A stretch of 32,000 nt of DNA from Megasphaera elsdenii DSM 20460. GTDB lineage: Bacteria > Bacillota > Negativicutes > Veillonellales > Megasphaeraceae. Positions within the stretch are counted from its first letter, which is position 1. Each line of letters opens with the position of its first letter. Both the position numbers and the translations under genes were made by a program. Where the stretch lies: NCBI RefSeq assembly GCF_003010495.1, contig NZ_CP027570.1, forward strand, positions 1,050,001-1,082,000. Reading direction: 5' to 3'. The notes beneath the pieces were generated by a model. That model saw only the letters and a list, made by a program, of their open reading frames with translations, was not told the origin of the DNA and searched no databases. Of the stretch, positions 340 through 26,820 are shown one piece after another.

Positions 340-381
340 TTCGTTCGTCGTTTATCGTTTATCGTTCGCCGTTCATCATAG
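340..381 (+). repeat. Heptamer tandem array, 6 units (ttcgttc gtcgttt atcgttt atcgttc gccgttc atcatag)
   Basis: Strict 7-nt period read directly. The array starts on the base after the larC stop codon. Confidence 0.85.
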
Positions 382-451
382 GGGCCATCCCAAAGGGCGG
401 CCCGCCTGATTCCGCTGCCATGGCGGGACGCCCTCTAGGCGTCCCCTACAG
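382..451 (+). repeat. Two GC-rich hairpins of the CCCCTACAG repeat module
   Basis: gggccatccc-aaag-ggcggccc, then gggacgcc-ctcta-ggcgtccc followed by ctacag. The same module recurs at 1272-1298, 4686-4699, 10021-10050, 21061-21095 and 21181-21205. Confidence 0.75.
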
Positions 452-488
452 AAAAAATGCTGACCGCATATGCGGCCAGCATTTTTTT
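452..488 (+). terminator. Rho-independent terminator after larC
   Basis: A-tract, 12-bp stem atgctgaccgca/tgcggccagcat (1 mismatch), then T6. Confidence 0.7.
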
Positions 489-489
489 C

Positions 490-518
490 TTGACAAATCT
501 CTGACGTCATGGTATTAT
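490..518 (+). promoter_or_regulatory. Sigma-70-type promoter P1 of the tRNA operon
   Basis: TTGACA (490-495), 17-nt spacer, TATTAT (513-518) preceded by TGg (extended -10). Confidence 0.5.
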
Positions 519-561
519 AATCAAGTACTGTGACGGGCGCAAGGCCCGCCGGAATACAGCG

Positions 562-1144: not shown

Positions 1145-1172
1145 GCGTTGTTAGTTGTTAGTGGCTAGTGGC
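1145..1172 (+). repeat. Heptamer array, 4 units (gcgttgt tagttgt tagtggc tagtggc)
   Basis: 7-nt period, directly after the tRNA terminator. Confidence 0.75.
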
Positions 1173-1217
1173 TCCCCTGTGAAGGGGAGCTGGCGCCGCA
1201 GGCGTCTGAGGGGTTCT
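1170..1217 (+). repeat. Double-hairpin ~48-nt motif, copy 1 (copy 2 at 30963-31012)
   Basis: ggctcccc-tgtgaa-ggggagc, then tgg cgcc-gca-ggcg tctgaggggttct. About 88% identical to copy 2, with stem-preserving changes. Confidence 0.75.
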
Positions 1218-1242: not shown

Positions 1243-1298
1243 CGGATTGCGACCTGCGGCCTGCGGTCTGCGGGCCGCCCTTTGGGCGTCCCCTACAG
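1243..1298 (+). repeat. Heptamer array (cggattg cgacctg cggcctg cggtctg cgggccg) fused to a GC hairpin ending CCCCTACAG
   Basis: 5 units of cgNNctg, then gggccgccc-tttg-ggcgtccc-ctacag. Confidence 0.8.
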
Positions 1299-2598: not shown

Positions 2599-4496
2599 GT
2601 GCGCCCGGCATGGGCGCACTCTAATGGGTGAAAGTCCCTAAGCCGCCCGGTAGCGGGAAGGCTATAGCCAGAACCAAGGGTGTCCATCGTGAGATGGAAT
2701 CTGAAGGAAGGTCGAGGCAAATCTCTGGTCTGACGAACAGAAATCACATAAGGCTAGTCATGGGGATAAGGCCGCCTAACAGGTTGAAGTCCCATAGCTA
2801 CACGGAACCATGAATAGTAGATGTGGCAGACACATGGAGAGAAAGAGTGCGTTCTTACCCGGGGAGGCCTCATGGACATGATGGTGCCATATAGATTGGA
2901 CATCATGGTTGAAATAAGATTTATCATGAGGAGTCAGCCGAGGCCATAGTACCTTATGGGCTATAGACCATGAGGAAAGGGCCGAATCCTAGGAGATGTT
3001 AGTTAATGAAAGTAACCAATCATGGAATGAAAGACAGAAAACTTCATCAAGAAGGCTGTCCACAAAAAGAGGTTGCGGAACAACCGGGATATGTGGAAGC
3101 GTCTGCCCATGCGAGGATTGCTGAACACAACGACATCATTGCAAGCTTGCCAGCGGACAGTCTGTTGAAGCAGATTTTATCACGAGACAACTTAAATGGT
3201 GCCTATAAGAAGGTAAAGTCTAATCGAGGAACCGGCGGGGTCGACAGGATGAGTGTAGATGAACTTCTACCCTACCTGCGGGAACATCGCCTGGACCTCC
3301 TTCAGCAAATACGGAATGGGAAATATAAGCCCCAGCCAGTCCGTCGGGTTGAAATACCCAAAGAGGAAAAAGGGAAATTCCGGAAATTAGGAATCCCTAC
3401 GGTCGTAGACCGCATGATACAACAGGCGATTACGCAGGTTCTTGTGCCTATCTACGAGCCACAGTTTTCAGATAGCAGTTTCGGGTTCCGTCCCAAACGG
3501 GGCGCCCACGATGCGTTGAAACAATGCCAGGCCTATGCAGATGAGGGCTATGTCTACGTCGTAGACATGGACTTGGAGAAATTTTTCGACAATGTCTGCC
3601 AAAGCAAATTGATAGAAGTTCTGTCAAGGAGCGTAAAAGACGGCCGGGTCATCTCGCTGATACACCAATATCTCCATGCTGGTGTTATCCGGCATGGGAT
3701 GTTCGAACGAAGTGAACAGGGGGTTCCCCAAGGAGGGCCATTGAGTCCGCTCTTGAGTAACATCATGCTGAATGAGCTGGATAAGGAGCTGGAACGGCGC
3801 GGACATAAATTTGTCCGCTATGCAGATGACTGCATGATACTCTGCAAAAGCAGAAGAAGTGCCGAAAGGACCTTGGAAAGCATCACTCGATATATTGAGA
3901 AGAAATTATTTCTCAAGGTGAATCGAAATAAGACGCACGTAGCCCACATCCGCTATGTTAAATATCTGGGATATGGCTTCTACCGAAAGAATGGAAAATG
4001 CCGACTCCGGGTGCATCCGAAATCCATTACTAAGATGAAAGACCGTTTGCGGTTTATATTGAAACGAAGCAATGGAAAAGGAAACGAAGTGAGAGCCCTT
4101 CTATTGAAACGATTCATAAAGGGATGGGTGAATTACTTTAAACTAGCGAATATGAAGGAACTGCTAATTCAAATTGACAGATGGATTCGACGCAAAATAC
4201 GAACCATATACTGGAAACAATGGAAGAAGGTACGGACGAAACACCGGATGATAAGCCAATACGGCGCGCCCAAGTGGGTAGTGTTGGAAATGGCTAACTG
4301 CCGAAAAGGTCCGTGGCGAGCAGCGGCAATGCTGAACTCAGTTCTTACGAATAAAGAAATAGCCCGCCTTGGCTACATAACCATGACGAGCTATTACAAG
4401 CAAGTATGCGAAAACTAGGAAACCGCCGTGTACCGAACGGTACGCACGGTGGTGTGAGAGGTCGGGATTTCTACTCAGAAATCCCTCCTACTCGAT
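2599..4496 (+). mobile_element. Group II intron, bacterial class C-like (~1.9 kb)
   Basis: The 5' end is GTGCG at 2599. The RT/maturase ORF lies inside. Domain V is at 4422-4453 (ccgccgtg tacc gaac ggta CG cacggtgg, CGC triad). Domain VI is at 4455-4494 with bulged A4490. The 3' end ...gAT is at 4496. Insertion is just downstream of a terminator hairpin. Confidence 0.85.
3006..4418 (+). CDS. ltrA: Group II intron reverse transcriptase/maturase (no endonuclease domain evident)
   Basis: 470 aa. RT motifs include GVPQGGPLSPLLSN and FVRYADDCMILC (YADD). A C-terminal maturase X-like region is present (GWVNYF...). Confidence 0.92.
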   Translation: MKVTNHGMKDRKLHQEGCPQKEVAEQPGYVEASAHARIAEHNDIIASLPADSLLKQILSRDNLNGAYKKVKSNRGTGGVDRMSVDELLPYLREHRLDLLQQIRNGKYKPQPVRRVEIPKEEKGKFRKLGIPTVVDRMIQQAITQVLVPIYEPQFSDSSFGFRPKRGAHDALKQCQAYADEGYVYVVDMDLEKFFDNVCQSKLIEVLSRSVKDGRVISLIHQYLHAGVIRHGMFERSEQGVPQGGPLSPLLSNIMLNELDKELERRGHKFVRYADDCMILCKSRRSAERTLESITRYIEKKLFLKVNRNKTHVAHIRYVKYLGYGFYRKNGKCRLRVHPKSITKMKDRLRFILKRSNGKGNEVRALLLKRFIKGWVNYFKLANMKELLIQIDRWIRRKIRTIYWKQWKKVRTKHRMISQYGAPKWVVLEMANCRKGPWRAAAMLNSVLTNKEIARLGYITMTSYYKQVCEN

Positions 4497-4627
4497 TTCG
4501 TTTGGCGTGGTCCGTTTGCCGAAAATTCTCGCAGCTGCAAGAAAAATGATATCTGCATACAGCAGATTGTTAAAAATTTTAAACCTTCACGGCAAACGAG
4601 CCACGACCCACGGCAAACGACGTGAAC
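4497..4627. repeat. Palindromic heptamer-array element with a long spacer
   Basis: The left arm tcgtttg gcgtggt ccgtttg ccgaaaa (4498-4525) is complementary to the right arm ttcacgg caaacga gccacga cccacgg caaacga cgtgaac (4586-4627). The spacer contains ttaaaaattttaaacc. Confidence 0.7.
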
Positions 4628-4630
4628 CAA

Positions 4631-4676
4631 GGGATTGTGCATGATGGCAAAAGCCTTCGTGTGACAATCCCTTTTT
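4631..4676 (+). terminator. Terminator-like hairpin plus T-tract followed by GTAG
   Basis: Stem gggattgt/acaatccc with a large loop, then T5 and gtag. The context ccctttttgtag resembles the pta site ccccttttgtag. Confidence 0.35.
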
Positions 4677-4685
4677 GTAGTGAAA

Positions 4686-4734
4686 GGCGCCCCCTACAGC
4701 GATGAACGATGAACGACCAACGACGAACGATCAT
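4686..4734 (-). repeat. Heptamer array (minus strand: tcgttcg tcgttgg tcgttca tcgttca) plus CTGTAGGGGGCGCC
   Basis: Read on the minus strand, the array starts at the TGA stop of the 4731-5159 gene. It is homologous in layout and unit to 340-390. Confidence 0.8.
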
Positions 4735-5159
4735 TTATACCGTACGCGGCGGTTGCCGACGACCATGGTCGGGCTCAGGGTGCGGTAGACCATGTAGGTG
4801 AAGAACATGAAGCCGAAGAGGAAGACCAAGGCGTATTCGTCTGTGAGCGGGGCGTCTTTGGTGAAGTACCAGGCACAGGCCAGGGTCAGGATGAGGCTGG
4901 CGTACATGGAAATGGTGACGCACCACGTCCGCTGGCCGCGGTCGCGCATCTTATAGAAATCGTGGAATTTGACGTACATGGCGATGGTCCAGGTGACGAG
5001 GACGACAGCCAGTACGATGGGGACGATCAAGGGAAGGGGCAGATATGAGGATACGAGAACGAGGAGCATAAGGGCAAAGGTGCTGAGGAAAATCCCTTCC
5101 TGGCGTTTCAAATCCTGGCTGGAATCATCAGGGACAGCCGGGCGGTTACGACGAGACAT
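4731..5159 (-). CDS. Hypothetical small integral membrane protein (about 4 TM segments)
   Basis: 142 aa with hydrophobic stretches (LSTFALMLLVLVSSYL, IVPIVLAVVLVTWTIAM, etc.). RBS aaagga lies 9 nt upstream. No family recognised. Confidence 0.6.
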   Translation of the reverse strand: MSRRNRPAVPDDSSQDLKRQEGIFLSTFALMLLVLVSSYLPLPLIVPIVLAVVLVTWTIAMYVKFHDFYKMRDRGQRTWCVTISMYASLILTLACAWYFTKDAPLTDEYALVFLFGFMFFTYMVYRTLSPTMVVGNRRVRYK

Positions 5160-5219: not shown

Positions 5220-5292
5220 CATTATGATAGCGTGAGGAGGTAAGGGCCGCCGTACAAAGGTGTTCGTCATTAACGATGGGACCTTTACTCTC

Positions 5293-5386
5293 TTTGTTTG
5301 ATGTTTGACGTTTGATGTTTGGGAATACGGTTTTTTAATTTAAAACCATTTACATCAAACATCAAACTTTTAACTTCAAACGTAAA
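5293..5386. repeat. Palindromic heptamer-array element
   Basis: Left arm tttgttt gatgttt gacgttt gatgttt. Core ggttttttaatttaaaacc. Right arm acatcaa acatcaa actttta acttcaa acgtaaa. A 16-bp stem with 1 mismatch forms next to the core. Confidence 0.8.
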
Positions 5387-5399
5387 AGGATGTGTGATT

Positions 5400-6788
5400 A
5401 TGCATGCAGTAAAGACATATGATGTCATTATCATCGGGGCTGGTCCGGCCGGTATTTTTACGGCCCTGGAACTGGCCGATAAAGGATTTAAGATTCTCAT
5501 GGTCGAAAAGGGGCAGGACATACGGGAGCGCATTGCGACGAGCCTGAACAAGAAGGCCCTGCCCAAAGACCGGATGCGCAATGTCGTCTGTGGCTGGGGT
5601 GGTGCCGGTGCCTTCAGTGACGGAAAATTGACGCTGACGACGGAATACGGCGGCAACCTCGACGACTACATGTCCAAGGCCGACCTCATGGACAAGATTC
5701 GTTACGTCGATGACGTCTACTGCCGTTTCGGCGGTGCCGGCCGTAAAGTCTATGGCGATGAAAACAAAGACCACATCCGCGACATCAAGCGCAAAGCTGC
5801 CGCAGCGGACCTGCGTTTCATCCCGGCCCGTATCCGCCATCTCGGGACCGACGTCAACGCTCAGATCCTGACTAACATGCGCGATTTCCTGGAAGGGAAA
5901 GTCGACATCATGGCCGATACGGCTGTAGACCATATCGTGGAAGAGAAAGGCGAAATCAAAGGCGTCCTCATCGATGACCAGTTCTATGCCTGCCGTTATC
6001 TGGTCAGTGCTCCCGGCCGGGAAGGGTCGGAATGGTTTGTCCATGAAGTCGAAAAGATGGGCCTCAAACTGACGTCCAATGCCGTCGACATCGGCGTCCG
6101 CGTAGAAATGCCGGCAGAAGTCCTGGAAACGATTACCGACGTCGTCTATGAATCGAAGCTCATCTATTTCAGCAAATCCTTTGACGACCGGATCCGCACG
6201 TTCTGCATGAATCCCTATGGCTTCGTCGTCGAAGAGAATAACGATGGCCTGCTCACGGTCAACGGCCACAGTTATGCCCACAAGAAGAGTGAAAATACGA
6301 ACTTCGCCATCCTCGTCTCCAAGAAGTTCACGGAACCCTTCCATGAACCGATTAAATACGGGAAGTACATCGCCAATCTGGCCAACATCCTCGGCGGCGG
6401 CGTCATCGTCCAGCGCCTGGGCGACTTCCTCGATGGCCGCCGGTCGACGCCGGAACGGATCCAGCGGGGCCTCGTCCGGCCGACCATGCCCGATGCGACA
6501 CCAGGTGATTTATCGCTGGTCCTGCCGTACCGCCATATGCTGGACATCAAGGAAATGCTGGAAGCCCTCGATGCCGTCGCTCCTGGGGCCAACTCGCGCC
6601 ATACCTTGTTGTACGGCGTAGAAGCCAAGTTCTATTCCAACCGCCTGGAATTGAGCCACGTCCTGGAAACGAAGATTCCCAATTTCTTTGCCATCGGCGA
6701 CGGCGCCGGCATCACCCGCGGCCTGGTACAGGCGTCGGCAGCAGGTGTAACTGTCGGTCAGGAAATTTTGCGGCGGGAAGAAACGTAA
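5400..6788 (+). CDS. FAD-dependent protein (uncharacterised NAD(FAD)-utilising dehydrogenase family)
   Basis: A Rossmann motif, YDVIIIGAGPAGIFTALEL, lies at the N-terminus when starting at ATG 5400 (RBS aagga 8 nt upstream). The track's 5319 start only adds translated repeat sequence. Confidence 0.8.
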   Translation: MHAVKTYDVIIIGAGPAGIFTALELADKGFKILMVEKGQDIRERIATSLNKKALPKDRMRNVVCGWGGAGAFSDGKLTLTTEYGGNLDDYMSKADLMDKIRYVDDVYCRFGGAGRKVYGDENKDHIRDIKRKAAAADLRFIPARIRHLGTDVNAQILTNMRDFLEGKVDIMADTAVDHIVEEKGEIKGVLIDDQFYACRYLVSAPGREGSEWFVHEVEKMGLKLTSNAVDIGVRVEMPAEVLETITDVVYESKLIYFSKSFDDRIRTFCMNPYGFVVEENNDGLLTVNGHSYAHKKSENTNFAILVSKKFTEPFHEPIKYGKYIANLANILGGGVIVQRLGDFLDGRRSTPERIQRGLVRPTMPDATPGDLSLVLPYRHMLDIKEMLEALDAVAPGANSRHTLLYGVEAKFYSNRLELSHVLETKIPNFFAIGDGAGITRGLVQASAAGVTVGQEILRREET

Positions 6789-8968: not shown

Positions 8969-9012
8969 AAGCAGGACATCCTTTCATAGTGATAGTTTTA
9001 TTATAGAGTGAT

Positions 9013-9095
9013 TCGTGGCTAGTGGCTAGTAGTTCGTGGCTCGTGGTTAAATTTAAAACCATCCGCTAACCACTAACTGCTAGCCCCTAACCACT
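9013..9095. repeat. Palindromic heptamer-array element
   Basis: Left arm tcgtggc tagtggc tagtagt tcgtggc tcgtggt. Core taaatttaaaa. Right arm ccatccg ctaacca ctaactg ctagccc ctaacca (about 70-75% complementary, unit by unit). Confidence 0.8.
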
Positions 9096-9096
9096 T

Positions 9097-9130
9097 AAAA
9101 GGGCTTGTCGCACGTGCGACAAGCCCTTTT
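9097..9130. terminator. Bidirectional rho-independent terminator (serves the 9141-9857 gene)
   Basis: aaaa, then the perfect 26-nt palindrome gggcttgtcgcacgtgcgacaagccc, then tttt. Confidence 0.85.
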
Positions 9131-9140
9131 GAAAGGAGGC

Positions 9141-9971: not shown

Positions 9972-10050
9972 GTTTGTAGTTTGTAGTTTGTAGTTTGTAG
10001 TTTGTAGTTTGTAGTTTGCAGGCTGTAGGGGCGCCCATGTGGGGCGCCCG
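9972..10050 (+). repeat. Heptamer array (gtttgta x6 perfect, then gtttgca, ggctgta) fused to a GGGGCGCCC hairpin
   Basis: 49 nt with exact period 7, then ctgtaggggcgccc-atgt-ggggcgccc. Confidence 0.9.
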
Positions 10051-10094
10051 CCGAGTCCGCCATGTTTTATATAATAGAGAGTGAGGTATCGATC

Positions 10095-11132
10095 ATGAAC
10101 GATGAACGTTTGAAATTGACTCAAATGGCGTCCTGCTCCGGTTGAGGCGCTAAGTTAGGGCCAGGGACACTGGCTCAATTGTTGGACGGGCTTCCAACAC
10201 ATAAAGATGACCGCCTCCTCGTTGGCTATGATAAGAGCGACGACGCGTCGGTCTACCAGGTGAGCGATGATCTGGCTGTCGTCCAAACGGTCGATTTCTT
10301 TCCGCCTATCGTCGACGATCCTTATTTATTCGGTCAGATTGCAGCGGCCAATGCCCTGAGCGACGTCTACGCCATGGGGGCCGAGGCGAAACTGGCCATG
10401 AACATCATGTGCGTCAATTTGTCCATGGGCCGCGAAGCCATCCGGGCTATCCTCGAAGGGGGATACCAAAAGGCCTATGAAGGCGGGGTCATCATCACCG
10501 GCGGCCATACCATCGAAGATAAGGAGCCGAAGTACGGCCTGTCCGTGACCGGTTTCGTTCATCCGCAGAAATTATTGCGCAATTCGTCGGCCCGGCCTGG
10601 CGACGTCCTCATCCTGACCAAGCCCTTAGGCGTGGGTATCTTGATGACAGCTGCCCAGGGCGATTTCGTCGAAGCGCCGCTCCTGCAGCAGCTCTATGAC
10701 CAGATGGCCCAGCTCAATAAGACGGCCCGGGACATCATGGTCCGCTATGACGTCCACAGCTGTACCGACGTTACGGGCTTCGGCCTGTTGGGCCATGCCT
10801 GTGAAATGGCCGATGGCAGCGGGACGACGATTCATTTTCAAGGCGATGCCATTCCCTATCATAAAGAGGCCCTGGACATGGCGGCCATGGGGCTGATCCC
10901 GGCCGGAGCGTACCGCAACCGTGATTTCGTCGCCGGCCGGATTGATACGGGCAGCGCCGATAAGCGCTTCATGGATGTCCTCTATGACCCACAGACTTCG
11001 GGCGGCCTGCTCATCGCTGTCGCCGAAAAAGACGCAGCGAAGCTGGAACGGGCCCTGAAAGACACGATTCCCTGTGCGGCCGTCGTCGGCTATGTGACCG
11101 GGCGGGAGAACTACTCCATCGTCATCGATTGA
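10095..11132 (+). CDS. selD: Selenide, water dikinase (selenophosphate synthetase), selenocysteine-containing form
   Basis: ATG 10095 gives MNDERLKLTQMASCSG-U(TGA 10143-10145)-GAKLGPGTLAQLL, continuing in frame into the 10179 ORF. The SGUGAK position corresponds to the catalytic Cys/Sec of SelD. The rest (DDASVY...VDFF...DDPYLFGQIAAANALSDVYAMG) is canonical SelD. Confidence 0.9.
10158..10176 (+). promoter_or_regulatory. Candidate bacterial SECIS hairpin for the selD UGA
   Basis: Stem gggccag/ctggctc (one G-U pair) with apical loop ggaca. The loop starts 20 nt after the UGA. Confidence 0.5.
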
Positions 11133-11187
11133 ATCTCTTACGCTTATAGTAGCGGGAGAGATTGGAGAACATTGCTGTTTAAAGACA

Positions 11188-11232
11188 TAGCGATGGATTT
11201 CACAGGTATCGAACCTGCAAAATCCATCGCTA
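11188..11232. terminator. Bidirectional terminator hairpin between selD and the LysR gene
   Basis: Perfect 13-bp stem tagcgatggattt/aaatccatcgcta with a 19-nt loop. Confidence 0.6.
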
Positions 11233-11235
11233 TAC

Positions 11236-12201: not shown

Positions 12202-12215
12202 GGATATCATCTCCG

Positions 12216-12234
12216 TTACAAAAATATTTTGTAA
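12216..12234. promoter_or_regulatory. LTTR-box-like dyad, copy 1
   Basis: TTACAAAA-ATA-TTTTGTAA (ACA-N9-TGT geometry), centred about 65 nt upstream of the predicted start site of the 12255-12283 promoter, in the lysR-divergent region. Confidence 0.6.
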
Positions 12235-12254
12235 AAAATAATAAATTTAATAGT

Positions 12255-12283
12255 TTTACTTGTGGAAAGTTTTGAAATATAAT
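12255..12283 (+). promoter_or_regulatory. Promoter of island operon 1
   Basis: TTTACT, 17-nt spacer, TATAAT. Both hexamers are conserved in the duplicate at 16898-16926. Confidence 0.55.
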
Positions 12284-12357
12284 CTAGTTGTAAGCAAGAG
12301 AACAGGAAATACAAAATATGAACTGATTATACTAATTCATCAAAGGAGAGATTCATT

Positions 12358-13386: not shown

Positions 13387-13420
13387 TAGAGACGATTAAT
13401 TTCAGAAATGAGGATATATC

Positions 13421-14833: not shown

Positions 14834-14848
14834 AAAGGATGAAAATCT

Positions 14849-15997: not shown

Positions 15998-16058
15998 GAA
16001 ATCAATTCCGCATATTTAGAAAATATAATCAATTATTGGTATATAGGAGGAACTCATC

Positions 16059-16748
16059 ATGTGTGTAGGTTTTCGTATTTTCACTAAAATCAATCGTCCT
16101 GAAAAAGAACTCATAGAAGCATTCAAAGGACTTCCGGCAGCCAATGTTGCCGATGTTATGAGCCGTTTCTTCTGTGTGAATTCGGCGATTAAATCGTTCA
16201 ATAACAAACCGTTGCTGGGGACTGCTTTTACTGTTCGTGCCCGCATTGGTGATAACTTATTACTGCATAAAGCCATCGCAATGGCTCAGCCAGGCGACGT
16301 TATCATCGTTGATGGCGATGGTGATATCTCCAATGCCTTTTGTGGCGATATCATGATGACGGAATGCCAGTCTTTGGGTATTGCTGGGGTCATCATTGAT
16401 GGCGCCGTACGCGATAAAGCTGATCTGGAAAAACTGGATATGCCCGTTTATGCTCGTGGCGTCATGCCGAAAGGTCCCTTCAAAGATGGACCGGGTGAAA
16501 TCAATGTGCCCATTTCCTGTGGTGGTGTTGTCGTAAACCCCGGTGATATTGTCATTGGTGACGCTGATGGTGTCGTCATTGTGCCACCTAAACAGGCTAA
16601 GGAAATCGCCGCTAAAGCGTGGAAGAAGCATGAGACTGAAGCAGCTAGTCTGGAACAAATTGCGAATGGCCGACGTGATAAATCCTGGGTTGATAAAGCC
16701 CTGGAAGCTAAAGGCTGTGAAATTATTGATGACTACTACCGTGCCTAA
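16059..16748 (+). CDS. RraA-fold protein (4-hydroxy-4-methyl-2-oxoglutarate aldolase / oxaloacetate decarboxylase family)
   Basis: 229 aa. GDNLLLHKAI...PGDVIIVDG...FCGDIMMTECQSLGIAGVIIDGAVRD...PGDIVIGDADGVVIVP are typical RraA/HMG-aldolase motifs. Confidence 0.85.
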   Translation: MCVGFRIFTKINRPEKELIEAFKGLPAANVADVMSRFFCVNSAIKSFNNKPLLGTAFTVRARIGDNLLLHKAIAMAQPGDVIIVDGDGDISNAFCGDIMMTECQSLGIAGVIIDGAVRDKADLEKLDMPVYARGVMPKGPFKDGPGEINVPISCGGVVVNPGDIVIGDADGVVIVPPKQAKEIAAKAWKKHETEAASLEQIANGRRDKSWVDKALEAKGCEIIDDYYRA

Positions 16749-16773
16749 CCGTAATCTATACAACGGATGATAC

Positions 16774-16817
16774 AAAAATACCGATGAGTAACATGATGTT
16801 GCTTGTCGGTATTTTTG
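16774..16817 (+). terminator. Terminator of island operon 1
   Basis: A-tract, stem ataccga/tcggtat (extendable with mismatches), T5. Confidence 0.6.
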
Positions 16818-16858
16818 TTTATGTTGTTCATGGAAATATAAAATTAGAAAACACGTGC

Positions 16859-16877
16859 TCACAAAAATATTTTGTAA
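16859..16877. promoter_or_regulatory. LTTR-box-like dyad, copy 2
   Basis: TCACAAAA-ATA-TTTTGTAA, at the same distance (-65) from the second promoter. Confidence 0.55.
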
Positions 16878-16897
16878 AAAATAATAAAATTCATAGT

Positions 16898-16926
16898 TTT
16901 ACTTGTATATGATTTTAAAATATAAT
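16898..16926 (+). promoter_or_regulatory. Promoter of island operon 2
   Basis: TTTACT, 17-nt spacer, TATAAT. Confidence 0.55.
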
Positions 16927-17000
16927 GTAGTTGTAAACAAAAGACATGATATACATTACATATAATTATTACAATTGATTTATAAAAGGAGAGACGCATT

Positions 17001-18029
17001 ATGGCATGGAAAATTTTATTACCTCAGGAAATCATGGAAGAAGGAGCGCAGTTGTTGAAAGATGCTGGCCATACACTGATCCGTGGCAGAGGTTTTGAAA
17101 CAGCGGACGTCTTGGCAGATATGAAGGAATATAAACCGGATGCGATGATCGTACGTATTACCCCGATTACCCGCGAAGTCATTGAAGCGAATCCGAATCT
17201 GAAAGTTATTGCCCGTCACGGTGCCGGCTTTGATGCATTGGATGTCAAAGCTTGCCATGATAATGGGGTACAGACTTTATATGCTCCTGTAGCGAACAGT
17301 ACCTCTGTTGCTGAAACAGCCATCATGCTTATGTTTGAATGTAGCCGCAATGTCTTGAAACTGCGTAAGACCTGGGTTCAAGACTATTATAAAGCAAAAC
17401 TGAAGATTCACAAAACAACTCTTAATGGCAAGACCTTAGGCATCATTGGTTGTGGCAATATCGGCAGCCGTGTAGCAAAGCGGGCTTTAGGGCTGGAAAT
17501 GAACGTCTTGGCATACGACCCGTATAAACGGGCAGCTGAATTTCCGGAAGGTGTCGAAGTCGTACGCGACTTGAACCGGATTTTTAAGGAAAGTGATTAT
17601 GTATCTGTGCATACGCCGAATACGCCGCTTACCCGTCAGATGATTAACAAGGAAACACTGGCTATGATGAAATCTTCAGCCTTCCTGATTAACACGGCTC
17701 GTGGCGCTTGTGTCAATGAAATGGATTTGTATCAGGCCTGCAAAAATGGAATTATCGCAGGCGCCGGACTCGACGCTATTGCCCATGAACCAGTTGATCC
17801 TAACAATCCACTGCTGACACTGGATAATGTCATCATTTATCCGCACATCGGCGGTAACTCTGTGGAAGCGGCCCACCGGGCTTCGTACTTCTCTGCGATG
17901 GGCATCGAAGAAGTATATGAAGGCAAAGAACCGACCTGGCCGATTCATGATATTGATTATACGACAGCACCGACATACACGGATGTCCGTGTTCCTGATA
18001 AGAAACCGGTCGGCATGTTTGATTTTTAA
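17001..18029 (+). CDS. D-isomer-specific 2-hydroxyacid dehydrogenase, copy 2
   Basis: 342 aa. Differs from copy 1 only at M327T and I329V (TYMDIR vs TYTDVR). Confidence 0.88.
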   Translation: MAWKILLPQEIMEEGAQLLKDAGHTLIRGRGFETADVLADMKEYKPDAMIVRITPITREVIEANPNLKVIARHGAGFDALDVKACHDNGVQTLYAPVANSTSVAETAIMLMFECSRNVLKLRKTWVQDYYKAKLKIHKTTLNGKTLGIIGCGNIGSRVAKRALGLEMNVLAYDPYKRAAEFPEGVEVVRDLNRIFKESDYVSVHTPNTPLTRQMINKETLAMMKSSAFLINTARGACVNEMDLYQACKNGIIAGAGLDAIAHEPVDPNNPLLTLDNVIIYPHIGGNSVEAAHRASYFSAMGIEEVYEGKEPTWPIHDIDYTTAPTYTDVRVPDKKPVGMFDF

Positions 18030-18159
18030 TAGGCAATCCTAACATTATTTTTATGAACGGGATTGAAAGTAAGGCCGAGGACAACCGCCTTTTTTCAACA
18101 GAACGTGAAGGAGAATTCCTGCAGAATGATGGAATTGTCCTGGAGAGGAGTGCATCATT

Positions 18160-19464
18160 ATGCAGGATGCTTCTAAAATAAAAACATATCGTGTAAAATT
18201 AATTGCTGTATTGTTTGTTTGTATGGTTGTCATGGGGTTGGATCGCAGCAGCATAAGTGTGGCGGCCCCAGTTATCATGGACGAACTGGACATTGCTCCC
18301 ACTCAGATGGGATTGTTGTTATCGGCTTTCTTTTGGTCCTATACAATCTGCAATATTCCGGCTGGCCGGTTAGCTGACCGATTTGGTGCGAAAAAAGTAC
18401 TAGGTGGTGCTGCCGCTATCTGGTCAGTGGCGTCTGCCCTTACCGGGGGTATGCCCCATCTTATTGGCCTGATGATAGCCCGTATGGGAGTTGGCGTTGG
18501 CGAAGCCGGCGTTTTTCCCACGATGGCTAAAATTGCTGCTGAACAGTTCCCCGGTCGGGAAAGAGCAACGGCGACAGGATGTTATCTGGCCGGCGCCCGC
18601 TTAGGATATGCATTGACTCCCGTAGTCATCGGTTTCCTGATTGCTCAGTTCAACTGGCGTCTGGCTTTCATTGTTACGGGTGTTGGCAGCTTGTTATTTT
18701 GTCTGTTTTGGTTCTTCTGGTATGATGAAAATGAAGGTCGTGTTATTGGCAAATCTGTGGAAAGCAAGGTGCAGATGGAAAAGCAGCCAGTTCCTTGGCT
18801 GCAATTAGTAACAAACCGCACGATCCTCGGGTTATTTGTTGCCAAGTTTGGCGCCAATTACTTGTACTTCATGTTTTTGACATGGATTCCAGCTTATCTG
18901 GTCATGGAACGGGGCTTCTCTGTATTAGAAATGGGTTTTTACGCATCCCTTCCTTTTGTCGTAGCGTTTATTACACAACCTTTGACCGGTTTTATCTCAG
19001 ACTTCATTATCCGCAAAGGATTTAGTAAGACCATTGCCCGTAAAGGCGTACTTGTAGCTGCGCAGGCATTATCAGCCACCATTATTGCGGTAGCGTTTGT
19101 TGAAGACCCGATGATTGCTATGCTGATCCTGACCATTAATATAGCGGCGGCTTCTACGATTGGCGGTATGATGCAGACTATGGCTAGTGAAGTTTCTCCC
19201 TTAGGCATGTCGGCAACGGTTACCGGCGCTATGAATACTGTCGGCGCTATCGCTGGCGTTTTAGCACCCACAGTAACAGGCCTCATCGTGGAAATGACAG
19301 GCTCCTTCCAAATGGCCCTGGTCGTGGCGGGCGGCTTGATTGCAATTGCTGCAGCAATTATCCTGTTTGTTATCCAGAAAATAGAACCAATTAAATTGAA
19401 TATTAAGACTGTAAAAAAAAACAATCCTGAAAAAATAGGCTGTGAAATAACAGAATCTCGATAA
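18160..19464 (+). CDS. MFS transporter, anion:cation symporter (ACS)-like organic-acid permease
   Basis: 434 aa, 12 TM. GLDRSSISVAAP...GRLADRFGAKKVL is typical of the tartrate/galactonate/glucarate-type MFS carriers. Confidence 0.8.
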   Translation: MQDASKIKTYRVKLIAVLFVCMVVMGLDRSSISVAAPVIMDELDIAPTQMGLLLSAFFWSYTICNIPAGRLADRFGAKKVLGGAAAIWSVASALTGGMPHLIGLMIARMGVGVGEAGVFPTMAKIAAEQFPGRERATATGCYLAGARLGYALTPVVIGFLIAQFNWRLAFIVTGVGSLLFCLFWFFWYDENEGRVIGKSVESKVQMEKQPVPWLQLVTNRTILGLFVAKFGANYLYFMFLTWIPAYLVMERGFSVLEMGFYASLPFVVAFITQPLTGFISDFIIRKGFSKTIARKGVLVAAQALSATIIAVAFVEDPMIAMLILTINIAAASTIGGMMQTMASEVSPLGMSATVTGAMNTVGAIAGVLAPTVTGLIVEMTGSFQMALVVAGGLIAIAAAIILFVIQKIEPIKLNIKTVKKNNPEKIGCEITESR

Positions 19465-19465
19465 G

Positions 19466-19501
19466 AAAAAGCCGCGTTCTCCAATGAGTGACGCGGTTTT
19501 T
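19466..19501 (+). terminator. Terminator of island operon 2
   Basis: A5, stem ccgcgt/acgcgg, T5. Confidence 0.6.
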
Positions 19502-19759
19502 GCTAATTTCTCGATATAATATTTTAAAAATCCCCGGCACATCAGTGCAGCTAAGAAGGACTGCTTAATGTTGATGGCATTGGTCGACAGAATACAGAAA
19601 AATACATAGGGAGATTCCCATGCCGAAGAGGAAGGGAGCTTCTGGCGAAATTACGATAAAACTTGTAAAAACGGCTACCTTCGGCGCCTCAGATAGTGTA
19701 TAATAAAACTGGTGAGTTTTTTTACCGTACTCATGTCAACTACAAAGGAGAGATCAACT

Positions 19760-21052: not shown

Positions 21053-21060
21053 GAATCAAT

Positions 21061-21095
21061 TGTAGGGGCTCGCACGTGGCGAGCCCGCCCCTACA
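21061..21095 (+). repeat. Nested GC hairpin TGTAGGGG...CCCCTACA
   Basis: tgtagggg ctcgc acgtg gcgag cc cgcccctaca. Member of the CTGTAGGGG module family. Confidence 0.75.
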
Positions 21096-21096
21096 G

Positions 21097-21132: not shown

Positions 21133-21180
21133 GCTGTCACGGAAATCCGCATCAACGAAAGTCTCTCCTGATAGAGAGGC

Positions 21181-21247
21181 GGGCCGCCCTTTGGGCGGCC
21201 CCTACGAACCACGAGCCACGAGCCACGAGCCACGGACCACGGACCAC
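21181..21247 (-). repeat. GC hairpin plus heptamer array (plus strand: gaaccac gagccac x3 ggaccac x2)
   Basis: gggccgccc-tttg-ggcggccc ctac, then 6 units of period 7. On the minus strand this reads gtggNNc x6 followed by gtaggggccgccc. Confidence 0.85.
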
Positions 21248-23121: not shown

Positions 23122-23393
23122 TGGCTGGGGAAACGTATGGCATCGCCCTGGTCCCGTCGACGCGGCAGGCCATGGAAGGTGAAGCGCTTGCCAAAGCCGC
23201 CGGACTAGCCGTGCGCATCATTCCGACGCCGGGGAAGCTCGACGCATCGTGCGGTTTTTCCCTGCGCTATGAACTGGCTGATGAAGCGGCCCTGACAGCC
23301 CTCCTCGATGAGAAGGGGCTGGCATGGGCCGCTTTATATCATGCCTGCCGCCGGGGGCTGCGCGTCACCTATACTAAATGTAAAGAGGGATGA
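23121..23393 (+). CDS. DUF3343-like small protein (putative Se/S carrier-like family)
   Basis: 90 aa. YGIALVPSTRQAMEGEALAKAAGLAVRIIPTPGKLDASCGFSL fits the DUF3343 pattern (single Cys in xSCGxx). The start overlaps the previous stop (TGATG). Confidence 0.65.
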   Translation: MAGETYGIALVPSTRQAMEGEALAKAAGLAVRIIPTPGKLDASCGFSLRYELADEAALTALLDEKGLAWAALYHACRRGLRVTYTKCKEG

Positions 23394-23397
23394 TAAG

Positions 23398-25320
23398 ATG
23401 GCCAGACATATCGTTATCGGCACAGCCGGTCATGTCGATCATGGCAAGACGACGCTGGTCCGTGCCTTGACCGGAATCGAGACGGATACGACAGCCGAAG
23501 AAAAGAAACGGGGATTGACGATCAACCTGGGCTTTGCCTGGCTCGACCTGCCAGATGGTACGCGGGCCGGTATCGTCGATGTACCCGGTCATGAAAAGTT
23601 CATCAAGAATATGGTCGCCGGCCTGCCGGGCCTCAATCTGGTCCTGCTCGTCGTCGATGCTAACGAAGGGGTCATGCCGCAGACGAAAGAACATCTCGAC
23701 ATCTTGACCCTTCTTGGCGTACATCGATTCATCATCGTCGTCACTAAAGCCGATACCGTCGATGAAACCCTGCTCGGCCTGGCCCTGCAGGATATCCGCC
23801 AGAACCTGGCCGATACGGCAGCGGAAGACGCGCCTATCGTCGTCACTGATGCCATCAGCGGCCGCGGGCTGACAGAACTGGTCGCTGAAATCCAGGAAAT
23901 GGCCGCGTCTTTACCCGGCGAGACAGCCCGGGGGACAGGGCGCCTCAATGTGGACCGGTCTTTTTCCATCAAGGGCTTCGGGACGATTGTCACGGGTACT
24001 CTCATCGACGGTCCCATGACTAATGGTGGTGAGGTCTGGCTCTATCCTGGCGGCCGTCGCCTGCGTATCCGCAACATGCAGGTCCATGATCGGGATGTAT
24101 GGCAGGCAGAGCCGCCGCAGCGGACGGCCTTGAACCTGGCGGGCATTTCCAGCGGAGCCATCCATCGCGGCGATGTCCTCTGTACGGCAGCGGATTTTGC
24201 TGCGACGCGGATGATCGATGCCAAAGTGACCTGTCTGGCCGATGCAGAGCCACTCTTTTTATGGCAGCGCATGCGCCTCCTCGTAGGGACGCGGGAAGTC
24301 ATGGCCCGTATCGTGCCCTTAGGGGCCGAACAGATTGCGCCTGGGACCGATGGCTTTTTACAGCTGCGCCTGGAAGCGGATGAAATCTATGTAAAGGCCG
24401 GGGACCGCTTCATTTTGCGGACTTTTTCGCCTATGCATACCGTAGCCGGCGGGGAAATCCTCGACGCCCACCCTAAAAAACACCGCCGCTTCAAAGATGA
24501 CGTAGTGACCAGCCTGGAAGCTCGCGATGCTGGCCTGACAAATGATGTCGTCGCCGGTTTCCTGCGCCTGCGCCAGGTCCCCTTTACACAGGCCGGCGTC
24601 ATTGCCGGAGCGGTGGACCTGCCTTTGGATAAGGTGGAAATCGCTCTGGACCATTTACGCCAAGCCGGGATAGTCCGCCGGACCCGTCAAGGCTATATCC
24701 ATCGTGACGTCTATAAGGCCTGGCAGGCCAAGGCCTTGCAAGTCCTCTTGGCCTATCATAAAGAAAAACCGTTACAGCCGGGGATTCCCCAGCCGGTTTT
24801 CCGGAGCCGCCTGGGCCTCGATGAAAATGACGGGACGGCCTTGCTGCGGCTGTTGACGGCTGGCGGCGTCTGCCGCTTATCCCGACAATGCGTGGCGGCA
24901 AAACAATTCCGAATTACTTTTTCCCCGTCCCAGCGGAAATTGCAGTCGGCTATTGAAAAGAAGCTGGACCACAGCGGCTATGTACCGGTCCCTGTACGGG
25001 AAATCCTGGCGCTGGGCAAGGAAGCGCCTGCTGTTGCCGACGCCCTGAGTGGTAAGAGCCTCGTCTTTTTATCGAAAGATTTCGTCTTGTCCAAGCGGTT
25101 CCTGACGGAAGCTGCCCGAAAGGCCTGCCAGTCTTTGCAGACCGGGAATCTCCTGACTTTGGGTGATTTCCGCGATGCCCTGGCCATCAGCCGCAGCCAG
25201 GCCCTGCTCATCCTGGAGTATATGGACCGATGCGGAATCACCTGCCGCGTCCGTGACGGGCGCCTGGCCGGACCGCAGGCTCGGAGATATGAAGGGAAAG
25301 GGGAATCTGACCATGGATGA
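23398..25320 (+). CDS. selB: Selenocysteine-specific translation elongation factor
   Basis: ATG 23398 gives MARHIVIGTAGHVDHGKTTL, DVPGHEKF and TKAD G-motifs, plus a long C-terminal winged-helix extension. 640 aa. Confidence 0.92.
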   Translation: MARHIVIGTAGHVDHGKTTLVRALTGIETDTTAEEKKRGLTINLGFAWLDLPDGTRAGIVDVPGHEKFIKNMVAGLPGLNLVLLVVDANEGVMPQTKEHLDILTLLGVHRFIIVVTKADTVDETLLGLALQDIRQNLADTAAEDAPIVVTDAISGRGLTELVAEIQEMAASLPGETARGTGRLNVDRSFSIKGFGTIVTGTLIDGPMTNGGEVWLYPGGRRLRIRNMQVHDRDVWQAEPPQRTALNLAGISSGAIHRGDVLCTAADFAATRMIDAKVTCLADAEPLFLWQRMRLLVGTREVMARIVPLGAEQIAPGTDGFLQLRLEADEIYVKAGDRFILRTFSPMHTVAGGEILDAHPKKHRRFKDDVVTSLEARDAGLTNDVVAGFLRLRQVPFTQAGVIAGAVDLPLDKVEIALDHLRQAGIVRRTRQGYIHRDVYKAWQAKALQVLLAYHKEKPLQPGIPQPVFRSRLGLDENDGTALLRLLTAGGVCRLSRQCVAAKQFRITFSPSQRKLQSAIEKKLDHSGYVPVPVREILALGKEAPAVADALSGKSLVFLSKDFVLSKRFLTEAARKACQSLQTGNLLTLGDFRDALAISRSQALLILEYMDRCGITCRVRDGRLAGPQARRYEGKGESDHG

Positions 25321-26710
25321 AACACGGCAGCAGCTGCTGCGTCAGCTGCCGGATGTAGATCATTTATTGCAGCGGCCGGCCTTACAGATCTGGCAGGAAC
25401 GGAAGTCTCGTCAGGCCGTCCGCAATGCCGTCCGGGCTGAGCTGGATAAACGGCGCCAGGCCATCTTGACCGGCCAGTGGGACCAGCCGTTTTCCGGCGA
25501 AGTCTTCGACCAGGCTGTCGTTTCCCGCCTGCAGACTGAAGGACGGGGCCATCTGCGCCGGGTCATCAATGCGACGGGGACCATTCTGCATACGAACCTC
25601 GGGCGGTCTGTCTTCAGCCCGGAATTGGCCCGGCACATTGGCGAACTGGCCTGCCACTACAGTAACTTGGAATATGACCTGGCTTCGGGCAGGCGGGGGT
25701 CGCGGTACGACCATGTCCGGGGGCTCCTCTGTGACCTGACCGGCGCTGAAGATGCCCTGGTCGTCAATAATAATGCCGCTGCCGTCCTCTTGACTTTGTC
25801 CAGCCTCGCTGCGGGGAAGGAAGTCATCATCTCGCGGGGGGAACTCGTTGAAATCGGCGGGTCTTTCCGCATCCCCGACGTCATCGAGCAAAGTGGTGGC
25901 CGTATCCGTGAAGTCGGGACGACCAATAAGACCCACTTGGCCGACTACCAACGGGCCCTTGGCGAGGATACGGCGGCCCTCATGAAAGTCCACACCAGTA
26001 ATTACCGTATCATCGGTTTTACGGAAAGCGTCTCGCCGGCAGCCTTGGCCGGACTGGCCCATGACCACGGCCTGCCCTGTCTCCACGATGCCGGCAGCGG
26101 CTTATTCGTGGACTTAGAAACCTTTGGCCTGCCTCATGAACCGACAGTTGGCGAAGTACTGGCGGCTGGCTGTGACGTCGTGACCTTTAGCGGCGACAAG
26201 CTCCTGGGCGGCCCTCAGGCGGGTATCATCGTCGGAAAAGCGGCCTATCTGGATGCCATGAAACACCATCCCTTACTGCGGGCCCTGCGCGTTGATAAGA
26301 TGACCCTGGCCGGTTTAGAAGGGACGCTCCAGTCCTATCGCGACGGTACGGCGGCCCGTCAGATCCCGACCCTGCGCTGCCTGGCCCAGACAGAGGACGA
26401 GATAAAGGAACGGGCGGAACGGCTGTTACAATTCCTGCATACCGATGACCTGCCGGCCTGTGTCTCATTGCGTCCGATAGACGACTGCATCGGCGGCGGT
26501 GCCTGCCCGGATGTCGTCCTGCCGGGCTGGGCCCTGGCCATAGAAGCCGATGGCATGACCCCGGAAGAAATGGAACGCCGCCTGCGTCACGCCGACCTGC
26601 CCGTCATCGTCCGCGTCCAGTACAACGCCGTCGTTTTGTCCCTGCGCACCCTCGGCGATGACGAACTCCAGGACGCCTCTCGTATCGTGCGGGAAGCGTT
26701 GGGAGTTTAA
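25313..26710 (+). CDS. selA: L-seryl-tRNA(Sec) selenium transferase
   Basis: ATG 25313 overlaps the selB stop (ATGGATGA). NATGTILHTNLGRS and the PLP-Lys context FSGDKLLGGPQAG are SelA signatures. Confidence 0.92.
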   Translation: MDETRQQLLRQLPDVDHLLQRPALQIWQERKSRQAVRNAVRAELDKRRQAILTGQWDQPFSGEVFDQAVVSRLQTEGRGHLRRVINATGTILHTNLGRSVFSPELARHIGELACHYSNLEYDLASGRRGSRYDHVRGLLCDLTGAEDALVVNNNAAAVLLTLSSLAAGKEVIISRGELVEIGGSFRIPDVIEQSGGRIREVGTTNKTHLADYQRALGEDTAALMKVHTSNYRIIGFTESVSPAALAGLAHDHGLPCLHDAGSGLFVDLETFGLPHEPTVGEVLAAGCDVVTFSGDKLLGGPQAGIIVGKAAYLDAMKHHPLLRALRVDKMTLAGLEGTLQSYRDGTAARQIPTLRCLAQTEDEIKERAERLLQFLHTDDLPACVSLRPIDDCIGGGACPDVVLPGWALAIEADGMTPEEMERRLRHADLPVIVRVQYNAVVLSLRTLGDDELQDASRIVREALGV

Positions 26711-26753
26711 GCGTCGCGTGAAGGTTTCAGCCATCATGTATGAGCGGGCCGTT

Positions 26754-26820
26754 GCTTTATTGTTTGTAGAAGAGGAATTTAAATTAAAAAACTTCACTAC
26801 AAACTGTAAACTTAATACTC
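26754..26820. repeat. Palindromic heptamer-array element (short)
   Basis: Left arm gctttat tgtttgt agaagag. Core gaatttaaattaaaaaac. Right arm ttcacta caaactg taaactt aatactc. About 16/20 arm complementarity next to the core. Confidence 0.65.

Follow-up and report, generated by a model that had tools for sequence, protein, structure and literature searches.

Two kinds of intergenic repeat described from prokaryotes are relevant here. The GTAG superfamily of repetitive extragenic palindromic (REP) sequences consists of short GC-rich stem-loops with an unpaired GTAG at one end, which are extragenic, present in high copy number, often arranged as inverted dimers and associated with REP-associated tyrosine transposases (RAYTs); the hosts in a 2013 survey were Proteobacteria, Cyanobacteria, Chloroflexi and the Planctomycetes-Verrucomicrobia-Chlamydiae (PVC) superphylum, with Firmicutes unmentioned (PMC3733652). 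The RAYT literature found by our search likewise left Firmicutes unmentioned, save for one paper placing group 1 RAYTs in Clostridia. The second kind is the heptanucleotide repeat. According to surveys summarised in two papers, heptanucleotides are the most abundant long simple-sequence repeats (SSRs) in many prokaryotes, where they are intergenic and variable between relatives; polymerase slippage is the origin proposed there, the function is given as unknown, and the sole idea offered for the 7-nt step is that about 7 nt are held by the replicative polymerase (PMC4679880, PMC4692102). Both kinds were found in a 32,000-nt stretch of the chromosome of Megasphaera elsdenii DSM 20460 (NZ_CP027570.1, positions 1,050,001 to 1,082,000; hereafter the window), where intergenic arrays with an exact 7-nt period are interspersed with GC-rich hairpins and AT-rich near-palindromes.

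The window is probably explained by an intergenic mosaic resembling bacterial interspersed mosaic elements (BIMEs), where a REP/RAYT system is combined with heptamer microsatellites seeded at hairpins. The parts of such a mosaic would be GTAG REPs (module i), at least three other modules (an AT-core element, module ii, and modules iii and iv), intrinsic terminators, and the microsatellites between them. The REPs would be part of a population of REPs and REPINs (paired, inverted REPs) with cognate RAYT-type Y1 (HUH) transposases in the species, and the arrays would be neither separate mobile units nor protein-coding. They may lengthen and shorten in situ through slipped-strand mispairing in 7-nt steps, and many were plausibly seeded by stalling at the foot of a hairpin, where the terminal heptamer, GTAGGGG on the 5' side or G.CCCGC on the 3' side, would be duplicated. 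Copies would then drift (G to T, A to C), and local homogenisation would leave near-identical GT-rich blocks that look locus-specific. For the most part the elements are perhaps selfish or neutral, any effects on mRNA 3' ends or leaders being no more than secondary.

GTAG REPs and RAYT-like genes

Judged by its sequence, module (i) is a GTAG-tagged REP. A sequence-only reading of the window had matched it to no described class of REP, BIME or MITE (miniature inverted-repeat transposable element), but it fits the definition of the GTAG superfamily (PMC3733652). The design is GTAGGGG, a GC stem of 8-9 bp, a loop of 3-5 nt, the complementary stem and CCCGCC. The palindromes, for example GGGGCGCCC-ATGT-GGGGCGCCC, are GC-rich stem-loops of 20-40 bp, and GTAG stands immediately before the stem in the listed copies, with ATAG in one window copy. 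The window holds eight REPs, each between long open reading frames (ORFs), and CTGTAGGGG occurs in it five times where 0.09 occurrences are expected. Some 1.15 Mb of Megasphaera-type DNA yielded 312 distinct GTAGGGG hairpins (at least 6/7 stem positions paired), a count that gives no density because this sample was selected for REP presence. Stem subfamilies with compensatory changes were present (CGCCC/GGGCG, CTCGC/GCGAG, CCGCCC/GGGCGG and ACGCC/GGCGT). The REPs occur singly or as inverted pairs and for the most part lie downstream of genes, beside terminators; the inverted pairs at 378-406/422-451 and 21060-21096, with modules iii and iv interleaved, correspond to the arrangement of REPINs and BIMEs. 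The REPs of the window are:

378-406, plus strand: REP variant with an ATAG tag, ATAGGGGCCATCCC-AAA-GGGCGGCCCGCC, read from the letters; same stem subfamily as other REPs
422-451, minus strand: GTAG REP CTGTAGGGGACGCC-TAGA-GGGCGTCCCGCC, forming an inverted, REPIN-like pair with 378-406
1270-1298, minus strand: GTAG REP CTGTAGGGGACGCCC-AAA-GGGCGGCCCG
4676-4699, minus strand: degenerate GTAG REP CTGTAGGGGGCGCCTTTCACTACAA
10023-10052, plus strand: GTAG REP CTGTAGGGGCGCCC-ATGT-GGGGCGCCCGCC
21060-21096, no strand: REP tagged at both ends, TTGTAGGGGCTCGC-ACGT-GGCGAGCCCGCCCCTACAG
21178-21205, minus strand: GTAG REP GTAGGGGCCGCCC-AAA-GGGCGGCCCGCC

Also found in M. elsdenii were two clusters of RAYT-like Y1 transposases (P0005, 156 aa; P0004, 148 aa), whose members, such as WP_036202911.1 and MDY5103731.1, are annotated as transposases of this species. 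The best family of both is NF047646, the REP-associated tyrosine transposases (71-77.5 bits, E 1e-20 to 1e-22, against an NCBIfam curated cut-off of 80 bits); the IS200 model gives only 18-25 bits, and Pfam Y1_Tnp is precomputed for these proteins. GTAGGGG/CCCCTAC REPs lie both upstream and downstream of both genes (loci L267, L268 and L262; also L141 and L261) as pairs with the tags facing inward, an arrangement that identifies each RAYT-like gene with its flanking REPs as a putative REPtron. A search for a co-occurring RAYT- or transposase-like gene, which the sequence-only reading had proposed, was thus rewarded in the species, with module (i) REPs on either side of the candidates. At the locus between fdhD and moeA (L267-L271), strains differ by whole REP-containing blocks on both sides of the RAYT-like gene, with flank lengths of 382-615 nt upstream and 240-421 nt downstream, suggesting that REP clusters there expand and contract.

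The protein query behind these searches was reconstructed via a second, frameshifted gene copy, and P0004 is 89% identical to the reconstruction. A tblastn search with an Escherichia coli YafM query gave weak matches only, one of which led to a RAYT-like ORF in a Chloroflexi locus; in a Chloroflexi metagenome-assembled genome, 8 nt separate a REP from an ORF that again matches NF047646 best. The Chloroflexi ORF had no Pfam family, and a PDB sequence search returned it only at E = 0.47 to TnpA-REP 4ER8. As a query, it led in turn to the 5' end of a related gene on gut contig L141, behind a Megasphaera-type REP cluster. A REP adjoins a RAYT-like gene at 6213-6737 of locus L036. A regular-expression scan of the fetched loci for HUH and Y motifs produced nothing useful.

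A scan for GTAGGGGNNNNCNNNNGGNNNNCCCGCC in one genome per species found, among the matches listed, Megasphaera, Chloroflexota, Oscillospiraceae and Acidaminococcus, with multiple copies per locus outside Megasphaera, so that one REP type appears to be common to distant phyla. The same design is abundant in Chloroflexota (Anaerolineae, Phototrophicaceae and Aggregatilineales), with up to four tandem copies per locus among the matches listed, and in Oscillospiraceae the listed matches include Pc512_bin41 and Pseudoflavonifractor. In 2.9 million viral contigs the REP motif was nearly lacking: its three matches all come from one metagenome, and each lies some 120-150 nt away from an end of the stretch fetched.

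Period-7 arrays and their junctions with REPs

Seven-nucleotide periodicity was present at all ten of the sites that the sequence-only reading had named. One rule was applied to every period (at least 85% self-identity across 4 units). By this rule six arrays were found in the window at period 7, with periods 4-6 and 8-12 empty; in eight 21-kb loci from M. elsdenii and close relatives every array had period 7; and gut-metagenome contigs retrieved by way of the REP motif (854 kb) contained 56 arrays at period 7 as against one at period 5, one at period 6 and none elsewhere. Tandem Repeats Finder gave 13 period-7 rows in the window, with starts at 341, 1147, 1159, 1248, 4700, 5295, 5352, 9015, 9971 and 21204, and two period-14 rows, with a start at 9065, that represent the same kind of array. 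The core observation is genuine and far beyond chance. The main arrays of the window are:

340-381, plus strand: TCGTTNN family (GTT[CT][AG]TC register), running from the TAG stop of the upstream gene into a REP
1145-1172, plus strand: TAGTTGT then TAGTGGC, between a tRNA-operon terminator and module iii
1243-1277, minus strand: GC-rich units AGACCGC, AGGCCGC and AGGTCGC, continuing in register the ..GGCCCGC 3' tail of the adjoining REP
4700-4734, minus strand: TCGTTCA family, between the stop codon of gene 4731-5159 and a REP
9972-10022, plus strand: seven perfect units of GTAGTTT, in register with the GTAG of the next REP
21206-21247, minus strand: GTGGTCC x2, GTGGCTC x3 and GTGGTTC, in register with the GTAG of REP 21178-21205 and just upstream of the ribosome-binding site of a gene starting at 21271

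As had been proposed, the arrays belong to a non-coding family that is dispersed through intergenic DNA and characteristic of the host chromosome. Under a simple ORF model 77 of 85 arrays were intergenic, and coding repeats are excluded for the arrays. Nor are they CRISPR: their units are 7 nt long and contiguous, without the unique, similarly sized spacers that separate CRISPR repeats of 24-48 nt. Neither an array nor a REP lies in the AT-rich island at 11140-19560 or in the TnpB gene, again in agreement with the sequence-only reading, but the empty island says little because it holds only about 0.9 kb of intergenic DNA.

Two other generalisations from that reading need correction. Unit sequences had been described as specific to each locus, but they fall into a few recurring families, which on the GT-rich strand read GTGG[CT]T[AC], GTAGTTT, GTT[CT][AG]TC, GTTGTTA, TAGGGG[CT] and AGG[CT]CGC; the arrays at 340 and 4700 share one family, and those at 1159, 9013 and 21206 share another. 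One long array (L028) has a block structure of TAGTGGC x4, TAGGGGC x3, TAGGGGT x7 and TCGTGG[CT] x9, and such blocks of identical units are the pattern expected of local duplication and drift. The statement that every array is joined to one of two modules was too strong: the array at 1145-1172 abuts a third module at 1172-1215, and among 114 distinct arrays in Megasphaera-type DNA a GTAG REP was next in only 35 and an AT core in at least 10; others abut module iii, module iv or a terminator.

The arrays are heptanucleotide variable-number tandem repeats (VNTRs). Alleles were compared between exact 25-nt anchors on either side of each array, and a panel of ten strains was defined by an identical 142-aa protein of gene 4731-5159. 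Fourteen loci had more than one allele, and 11 of the 16 length differences were multiples of 7 (7, 14, 28, 35 and 70 nt); the others were of 1-2 nt, four of them in homopolymer runs outside the arrays. The TCGTTCA array at 4700-4734 is exactly one unit shorter in four of the ten strains, the GTAGTTT array at 9972-10022 has seven units in the window and two in another strain (L009), and a further array has 5 or 15 units in close strains. The comparison of unit number between strains, which the sequence-only reading had recommended, therefore showed change in whole 7-nt units, supporting its proposal of a slippage-type generating process.

A period-7 stretch lay directly 5' of 28 of the 312 REPs. 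In 16 of these 28 the GT of the unit is in register with the GTAG tag, where 4 are expected at random phase (P = 1.6e-7), and the polarity is constant, with the GT-rich strand reading toward the tag. The units beside REPs are tag-like (GTAGTTT, GTGGCTC, GTGGTTC, GTAGGCC), and TAGGGGC also resembles the tag. On the 3' side, GC-rich arrays of AGGTCGC, AGGCCGC and AGTTCGC continue the REP tail ..GGCCCGC, as at 1243-1277. Of 31 arrays behind a co-oriented gene, 12 start no more than 6 nt past its stop codon (340 and 4734 in the window, and 10 other loci), and the TAG stop at 337-339 is itself in register with the array, which fits expansion until the array meets selection.

These junctions also bear on an enzymatic origin, in which a RAYT or other hairpin-directed HUH enzyme would nick beside the tag and rejoin at a tag-like heptamer, adding or removing one unit per cycle, so that the arrays would be by-products or landing pads of REP processing and not of replication slippage. 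For characterised RAYTs, cleavage is at CT or CA on the 5' or 3' side of the REP and is guided by GTAG (PMC8266576). The shared phase with GTAG in 16 of 28 cases and the mimicry of the tag by GTAGTTT, GTGGCTC and TAGGGGC are what such an enzyme might leave behind; arrays occur on both REP flanks, each copying the adjoining end, CT precedes many REPs, giving CTGTAGGGG, and the commonest unit, GTGGCTC/A, contains the CT dinucleotide (PMC8266576). Several unit families, however, have no fixed CT or CA (GTAGTTT, GTTCATC, GTTGTTA, ATGTTTG), the majority of arrays lie away from REPs, and many genomes as well as phage contigs contain heptamer arrays of arbitrary units with no REP seen adjoining in the displayed flanks. 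Nor is E. coli, which has both REPs and a RAYT, known to carry such arrays. What is known of RAYT cleavage makes an enzymatic contribution conceivable, but with CT or CA unfixed in many families and the majority of arrays away from REPs it is a minority reading, and we regard it as unlikely; the same low expectation attaches to the arrays being RAYT products or substrates that act as decoys or landing pads when REPs and REPINs move. If it were true, the long-unexplained heptanucleotide excess of some genomes would gain an enzymatic cause, testable in a cultivable gut and rumen bacterium.

Relative to flanking genes, the GT-rich strand was co-oriented in 18 cases, anti-oriented in 17, convergent in 13 and divergent in 11, a random distribution that argues against a sequence-specific RNA role. 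An Rfam scan gave no family match for the repeats at the gathering score, which only tRNAs and group II intron domains passed, or at E up to 1 save for generic microRNA-hairpin models on 9016-9093, and known RNA families are therefore excluded. Together, the unbiased orientation and the absence of an Rfam match point to a DNA-level rather than an RNA-level origin. The units were also considered as Chi-like or primase sites, a reading that was dropped when a small sample showed no consistent strand bias.

The orientation data also leave unsupported the suggestion of a reader that measures 7-nt register, that is, of arrays as binding platforms on DNA or RNA for a protein. Proteins of this kind exist: the omega repressor/ParB of pSM19035 binds contiguous heptads, and HutP binds UAG-N4 repeats. 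A strict period with a loose sequence, N[AC]GT[GT][GT]N, is what such a protein might require, and many units are TAG-N4; some arrays lie just upstream of a ribosome-binding site (21206-21247; L268-L270), others directly behind stop codons (the 12 of 31 within 6 nt). The cold-shock protein CspB, with one heptamer per protein, is cited in one paper (PMC4679880). A reader of RNA is nevertheless hard to reconcile with the lack of strand preference, and free variation in unit number between close strains (2 versus 7, 5 versus 15), with arrays and elements present or absent, is unlike conserved operator or centromere sites. No candidate gene was linked to the arrays, and a HutP-type antiterminator site, with UAG-N4 on the sense strand of a leader, was rejected since many units are TCG-type, without the UAG that HutP needs, and orientation is random. 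We consider a register-reading protein very improbable.

Similar arrays were found well beyond Megasphaera. Loci of Gemmatimonadota, Ardenticatenales and Oscillospiraceae carry arrays with unrelated units and inverted pairs. In viral contigs the GTGGYTM unit was found in 52 stretches, compared with 23-27 for each of three scrambled units, and this roughly twofold difference led us to drop GTGGYTM as a special unit; the counts indicate instead that period-7 arrays are widespread. The 52 viral stretches (L276-L327) carry TAGTGG[CT]/TCGTGG[CT] arrays in fetched stretches of 35-71% G+C. Several of them form inverted pairs or have, just downstream on the AC-rich strand, a ribosome-binding site with its start codon.

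The AT-core element and further modules

Module (ii) is an element of about 110 nt, present in at least 26 copies. Its GT-rich arm and its AC-rich arm enclose a near-palindromic core, GG(Y)TTTAAATTTAAA(R)CC, with ATCCRCTAAC directly behind this core, and an intrinsic terminator often comes after the element. Its cores in the window are at 4568, 5330, 9043 and 26775. The right arms and terminators can be aligned between loci, which shows that the copies are homologues of one dispersed element and did not arise anew at every site. The window copies, with the z scores of their folding against shuffles, and the two copies of module iii are:

4498-4627, no strand: module (ii) variant reading GT-rich arm, inserted hairpin, core TGTTAAAAATTTTAAACC, AC-rich arm (z -4.45; -4.5 for 4495-4630)
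5293-5386, no strand: module (ii) with core 5330-5347 (z -5.0 for 5285-5395)
9013-9095, no strand: module (ii) with core 9043-9060 and terminator 9096-9132, the right arm and terminator being homologous to others elsewhere (z -5.6 for 9005-9100)
26754-26820, no strand: degenerate module (ii) with core 26775-26792, followed by a terminator (weak, z -2.1 for 26745-26825)
1172-1215, plus strand: module iii, with hairpin CTCCCCT-GTGA-AGGGGAG, hairpin CTGGCGCC-GCAG-GCGTC and tail TGAGGGGTT
30965-31010, plus strand: second copy of module iii, absent from the sequence-only reading

The two arms had been described as mutually complementary arrays, which is true of two window copies, 9013-9095 and 5293-5386. 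When 26 copies of the family were compared, it proved not to be general: arms paired with their own partners at 0.63 and with arms of other copies at 0.62, and the two arms come mostly from different unit families, such as GTAGTTT on one strand with GTGGCTA or GTTGTTA on the other. These values bear directly on the idea that only pairing matters, with the palindromes and array-hairpin units acting as functional structured RNAs or cruciforms (3'-end stabilisers, attenuators or small RNAs). The long hairpins of the window are far more stable than their shuffles (z -5.6, -5.0 and -4.5), the elements sit between stop codons and terminators or in leaders, and the GTAG REP survey mentions the hypothesis that REPs in other bacteria stabilise upstream mRNA (PMC3733652). 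The idea is nonetheless unsupported: arm complementarity is not copy-specific, and the copies are alignable homologues in sequence. The element at 5293-5386 is dispensable, its whole 113-nt block missing in seven of the ten strains; strand orientation relative to genes is random; and in place of an Rfam family there were only sub-threshold matches on 9016-9093 to microRNA hairpin models, consistent with a generic long hairpin. A role as structured RNA or cruciform thus appears quite improbable.

The presence or absence of 5293-5386 as a single 113-nt block, the core and ATCCRCTAAC shared by at least 26 copies, and the homology of whole right arms with their terminators do suggest that module (ii) could be an independent MITE- or foldback-like mobile element, moved by a non-RAYT transposase and carrying its arm arrays along. 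Insertion, deletion and allele replacement are indistinguishable at the polymorphic site, since the flanks have diverged and there is no target-site duplication. Inverted arms are present, but with neither a duplication nor a clean empty site at this one polymorphic site, module (ii) does not fit the definition of a MITE. No transposase was linked to it, and the number and family of its arm units vary among copies as expected of slippage after dispersal. We therefore hold independent mobility of module (ii) to be possible but doubtful; it is compatible with a REP/RAYT mosaic and does not exclude it.

Module iii, seen at 1172-1215 as CTCCCCT..AGGGGAG and CTGGCGCC..GGCGTCTGAGGGGTT hairpins abutting the array, has the consensus of a hairpin CTC[TC]CCT-N4-AGG[GA]GAG, a second GC hairpin and a conserved tail CTGAG[AG]GGTT. 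Its matches in the 1.15 Mb of Megasphaera-type DNA number 150 over both strands, or about 75 copies, and it frequently stands right after an array. Module iv was found at 14 loci (L028 2862, L172 2324, L185 9119 and 11 others) as an array, TCGTAAAAACCTGCCATTATACTCGAATGGGCTGTGG and about 15 nt, followed in most copies by an inverted REP (..CCCCTAC) and in five by a module iii-like hairpin instead. It looks like a larger REPIN-like unit in which one REP has been replaced.

Several observations weigh against the mosaic of REPs and hairpin-seeded microsatellites that we favour. Slippage alone leaves both the 7-nt step and the constant polarity unexplained, and in 12 of the 28 REPs with an adjoining array the register is not shared. 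A 5' array accompanies no more than about 9% of REPs (28/312), and about 60% of arrays are beside neither a REP nor an AT core, so that REP ends cannot be the sole seed. A perfect hairpin of at least 7 bp lay within 12 nt of the array end in 35 of 85 arrays as against 2.8% of nearby control positions, an enrichment that is only indicative because the controls are mostly coding. The RAYT-like proteins fall short of the NF047646 cut-off, no RAYT gene was located in the window and none was shown in DSM 20460, nor could any of modules (ii), iii and iv be linked to a transposase. At 5293-5386, finally, there was no target-site duplication, and the flanking bases of the empty allele differ too.

Neighbouring genes and comparison with known systems

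The counterpart of the window in HE576794.1 (GCA_000283495.2) lies at about 784.2-816.2 kb, with the arrays at a constant offset of 6995 (locus L005). G+C content is 50-60% in the first 11 kb and at 19.6-27 kb, and 40-46% at 11.1-19.6 kb. The low-GC island at 11140-19560 contains two 342-aa 2-hydroxyacid dehydrogenase genes (12358-13386 and 17001-18029) whose products are identical at 340 of 342 positions, each followed by a long ORF: a Na/sulfate-symporter-type gene at 13421-14833 (the L005 gene call) and an ORF without annotation at 18160-19464. This pair looks like a recent segmental duplication within a probable acquired region. The TnpB gene at 28081-29307 (minus strand) encodes OrfB_IS605 and a Cas12f1-like TNB domain, with no Y1 TnpA adjoining. 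A selenophosphate synthetase gene (selD) at 10093-11130, whose orthologue has AIRS/AIRS_C domains, has the GTAGTTT array and a REP in its upstream region; its product is called as 345 aa in one record and 317 aa in another, and an in-frame TGA near 10144 (..CSG-TGA-GAK..) is probably a selenocysteine codon.

A group II intron occupies 2599-4497, with a reverse transcriptase ORF at 3006-4418 (470 aa) that is present exactly at several sites in HE576794.1, and Rfam D1-D4 matches at 2683-2982. It sits right after the terminator ...CCCCTTTTGTAG and right before a heptamer array, and a heptamer array likewise forms the 3' exon of other genomic copies (L004 11487, L003 11508 and L006 11518); it behaves like introns that home beside terminators. 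The intron was rejected as a source of the repeats: it is absent at this site in nine of ten strains, and the repeats there are unchanged.

REP/RAYT systems have been studied mainly in Proteobacteria, and the putative Megasphaera (Negativicutes) REPtrons would widen that range; the GTAGGGG...CCCGCC design in Chloroflexota and Oscillospiraceae as well suggests that this REP type is old or has been transferred repeatedly. The excess of intergenic 7-nt repeats in prokaryotes has been known for nearly two decades without a mechanism. The arrays described here are unusually dense, vary among gut strains that occur together, and are in phase with the ends of a hairpin recognised by a known enzyme family, providing a handle on the choice between hairpin-stalled slippage and enzyme-driven duplication. 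They can also serve as VNTR markers for strain typing of M. elsdenii, and are a likely cause of breaks in metagenome contigs.

The arrays resemble several described systems in part. Their 7-nt register, with direct and inverted units tolerated, recalls the sites of omega (pSM19035) and HutP, but those are few, conserved and served by one regulator, whereas the sites described here number in the hundreds, are hypervariable, follow no orientation rule and have no regulator linked to them. Strain differences in exact unit multiples are shared with bacterial VNTR and contingency loci; unlike the latter, these arrays lie outside reading frames and have no evident phase-variable gene. The strict 7-nt period, intergenic position, variability and occasional inverted pairs are as in the short tandemly repeated repetitive (STRR) sequences of cyanobacteria, the GGGAATC-type repeats of Xanthomonas and Nostoc, and the TAACTGA repeats of Beggiatoaceae. 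In those reports a genome has a single fixed heptamer unit or a small number of them, without a connection to REPs, in contrast to the several families, constant polarity and REP-tag register found here. The small dispersed repeats of Nostoc punctiforme reportedly comprise short conserved palindromic modules inside locus-specific heptamer arrays; those modules are not known to be GTAG REPs.

The closest likeness is to the GTAG REP/REPIN and RAYT REPtrons, with which module (i) shares the GTAG at the 5' foot, a GC stem-loop of 20-30 nt, hundreds of extragenic copies and a flanked Y1/HUH gene. It differs from the surveyed GTAG REPs in its host, a Negativicute (Bacillota), and from known REPs in that tag and tail are often extended by phased heptamer arrays. 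Our literature search found no description of REP-phased arrays, nor of these repeats in Megasphaera. GTAG REPs and heptamer arrays are both known kinds of repeat, and the specific novelty is the phased junction between them.

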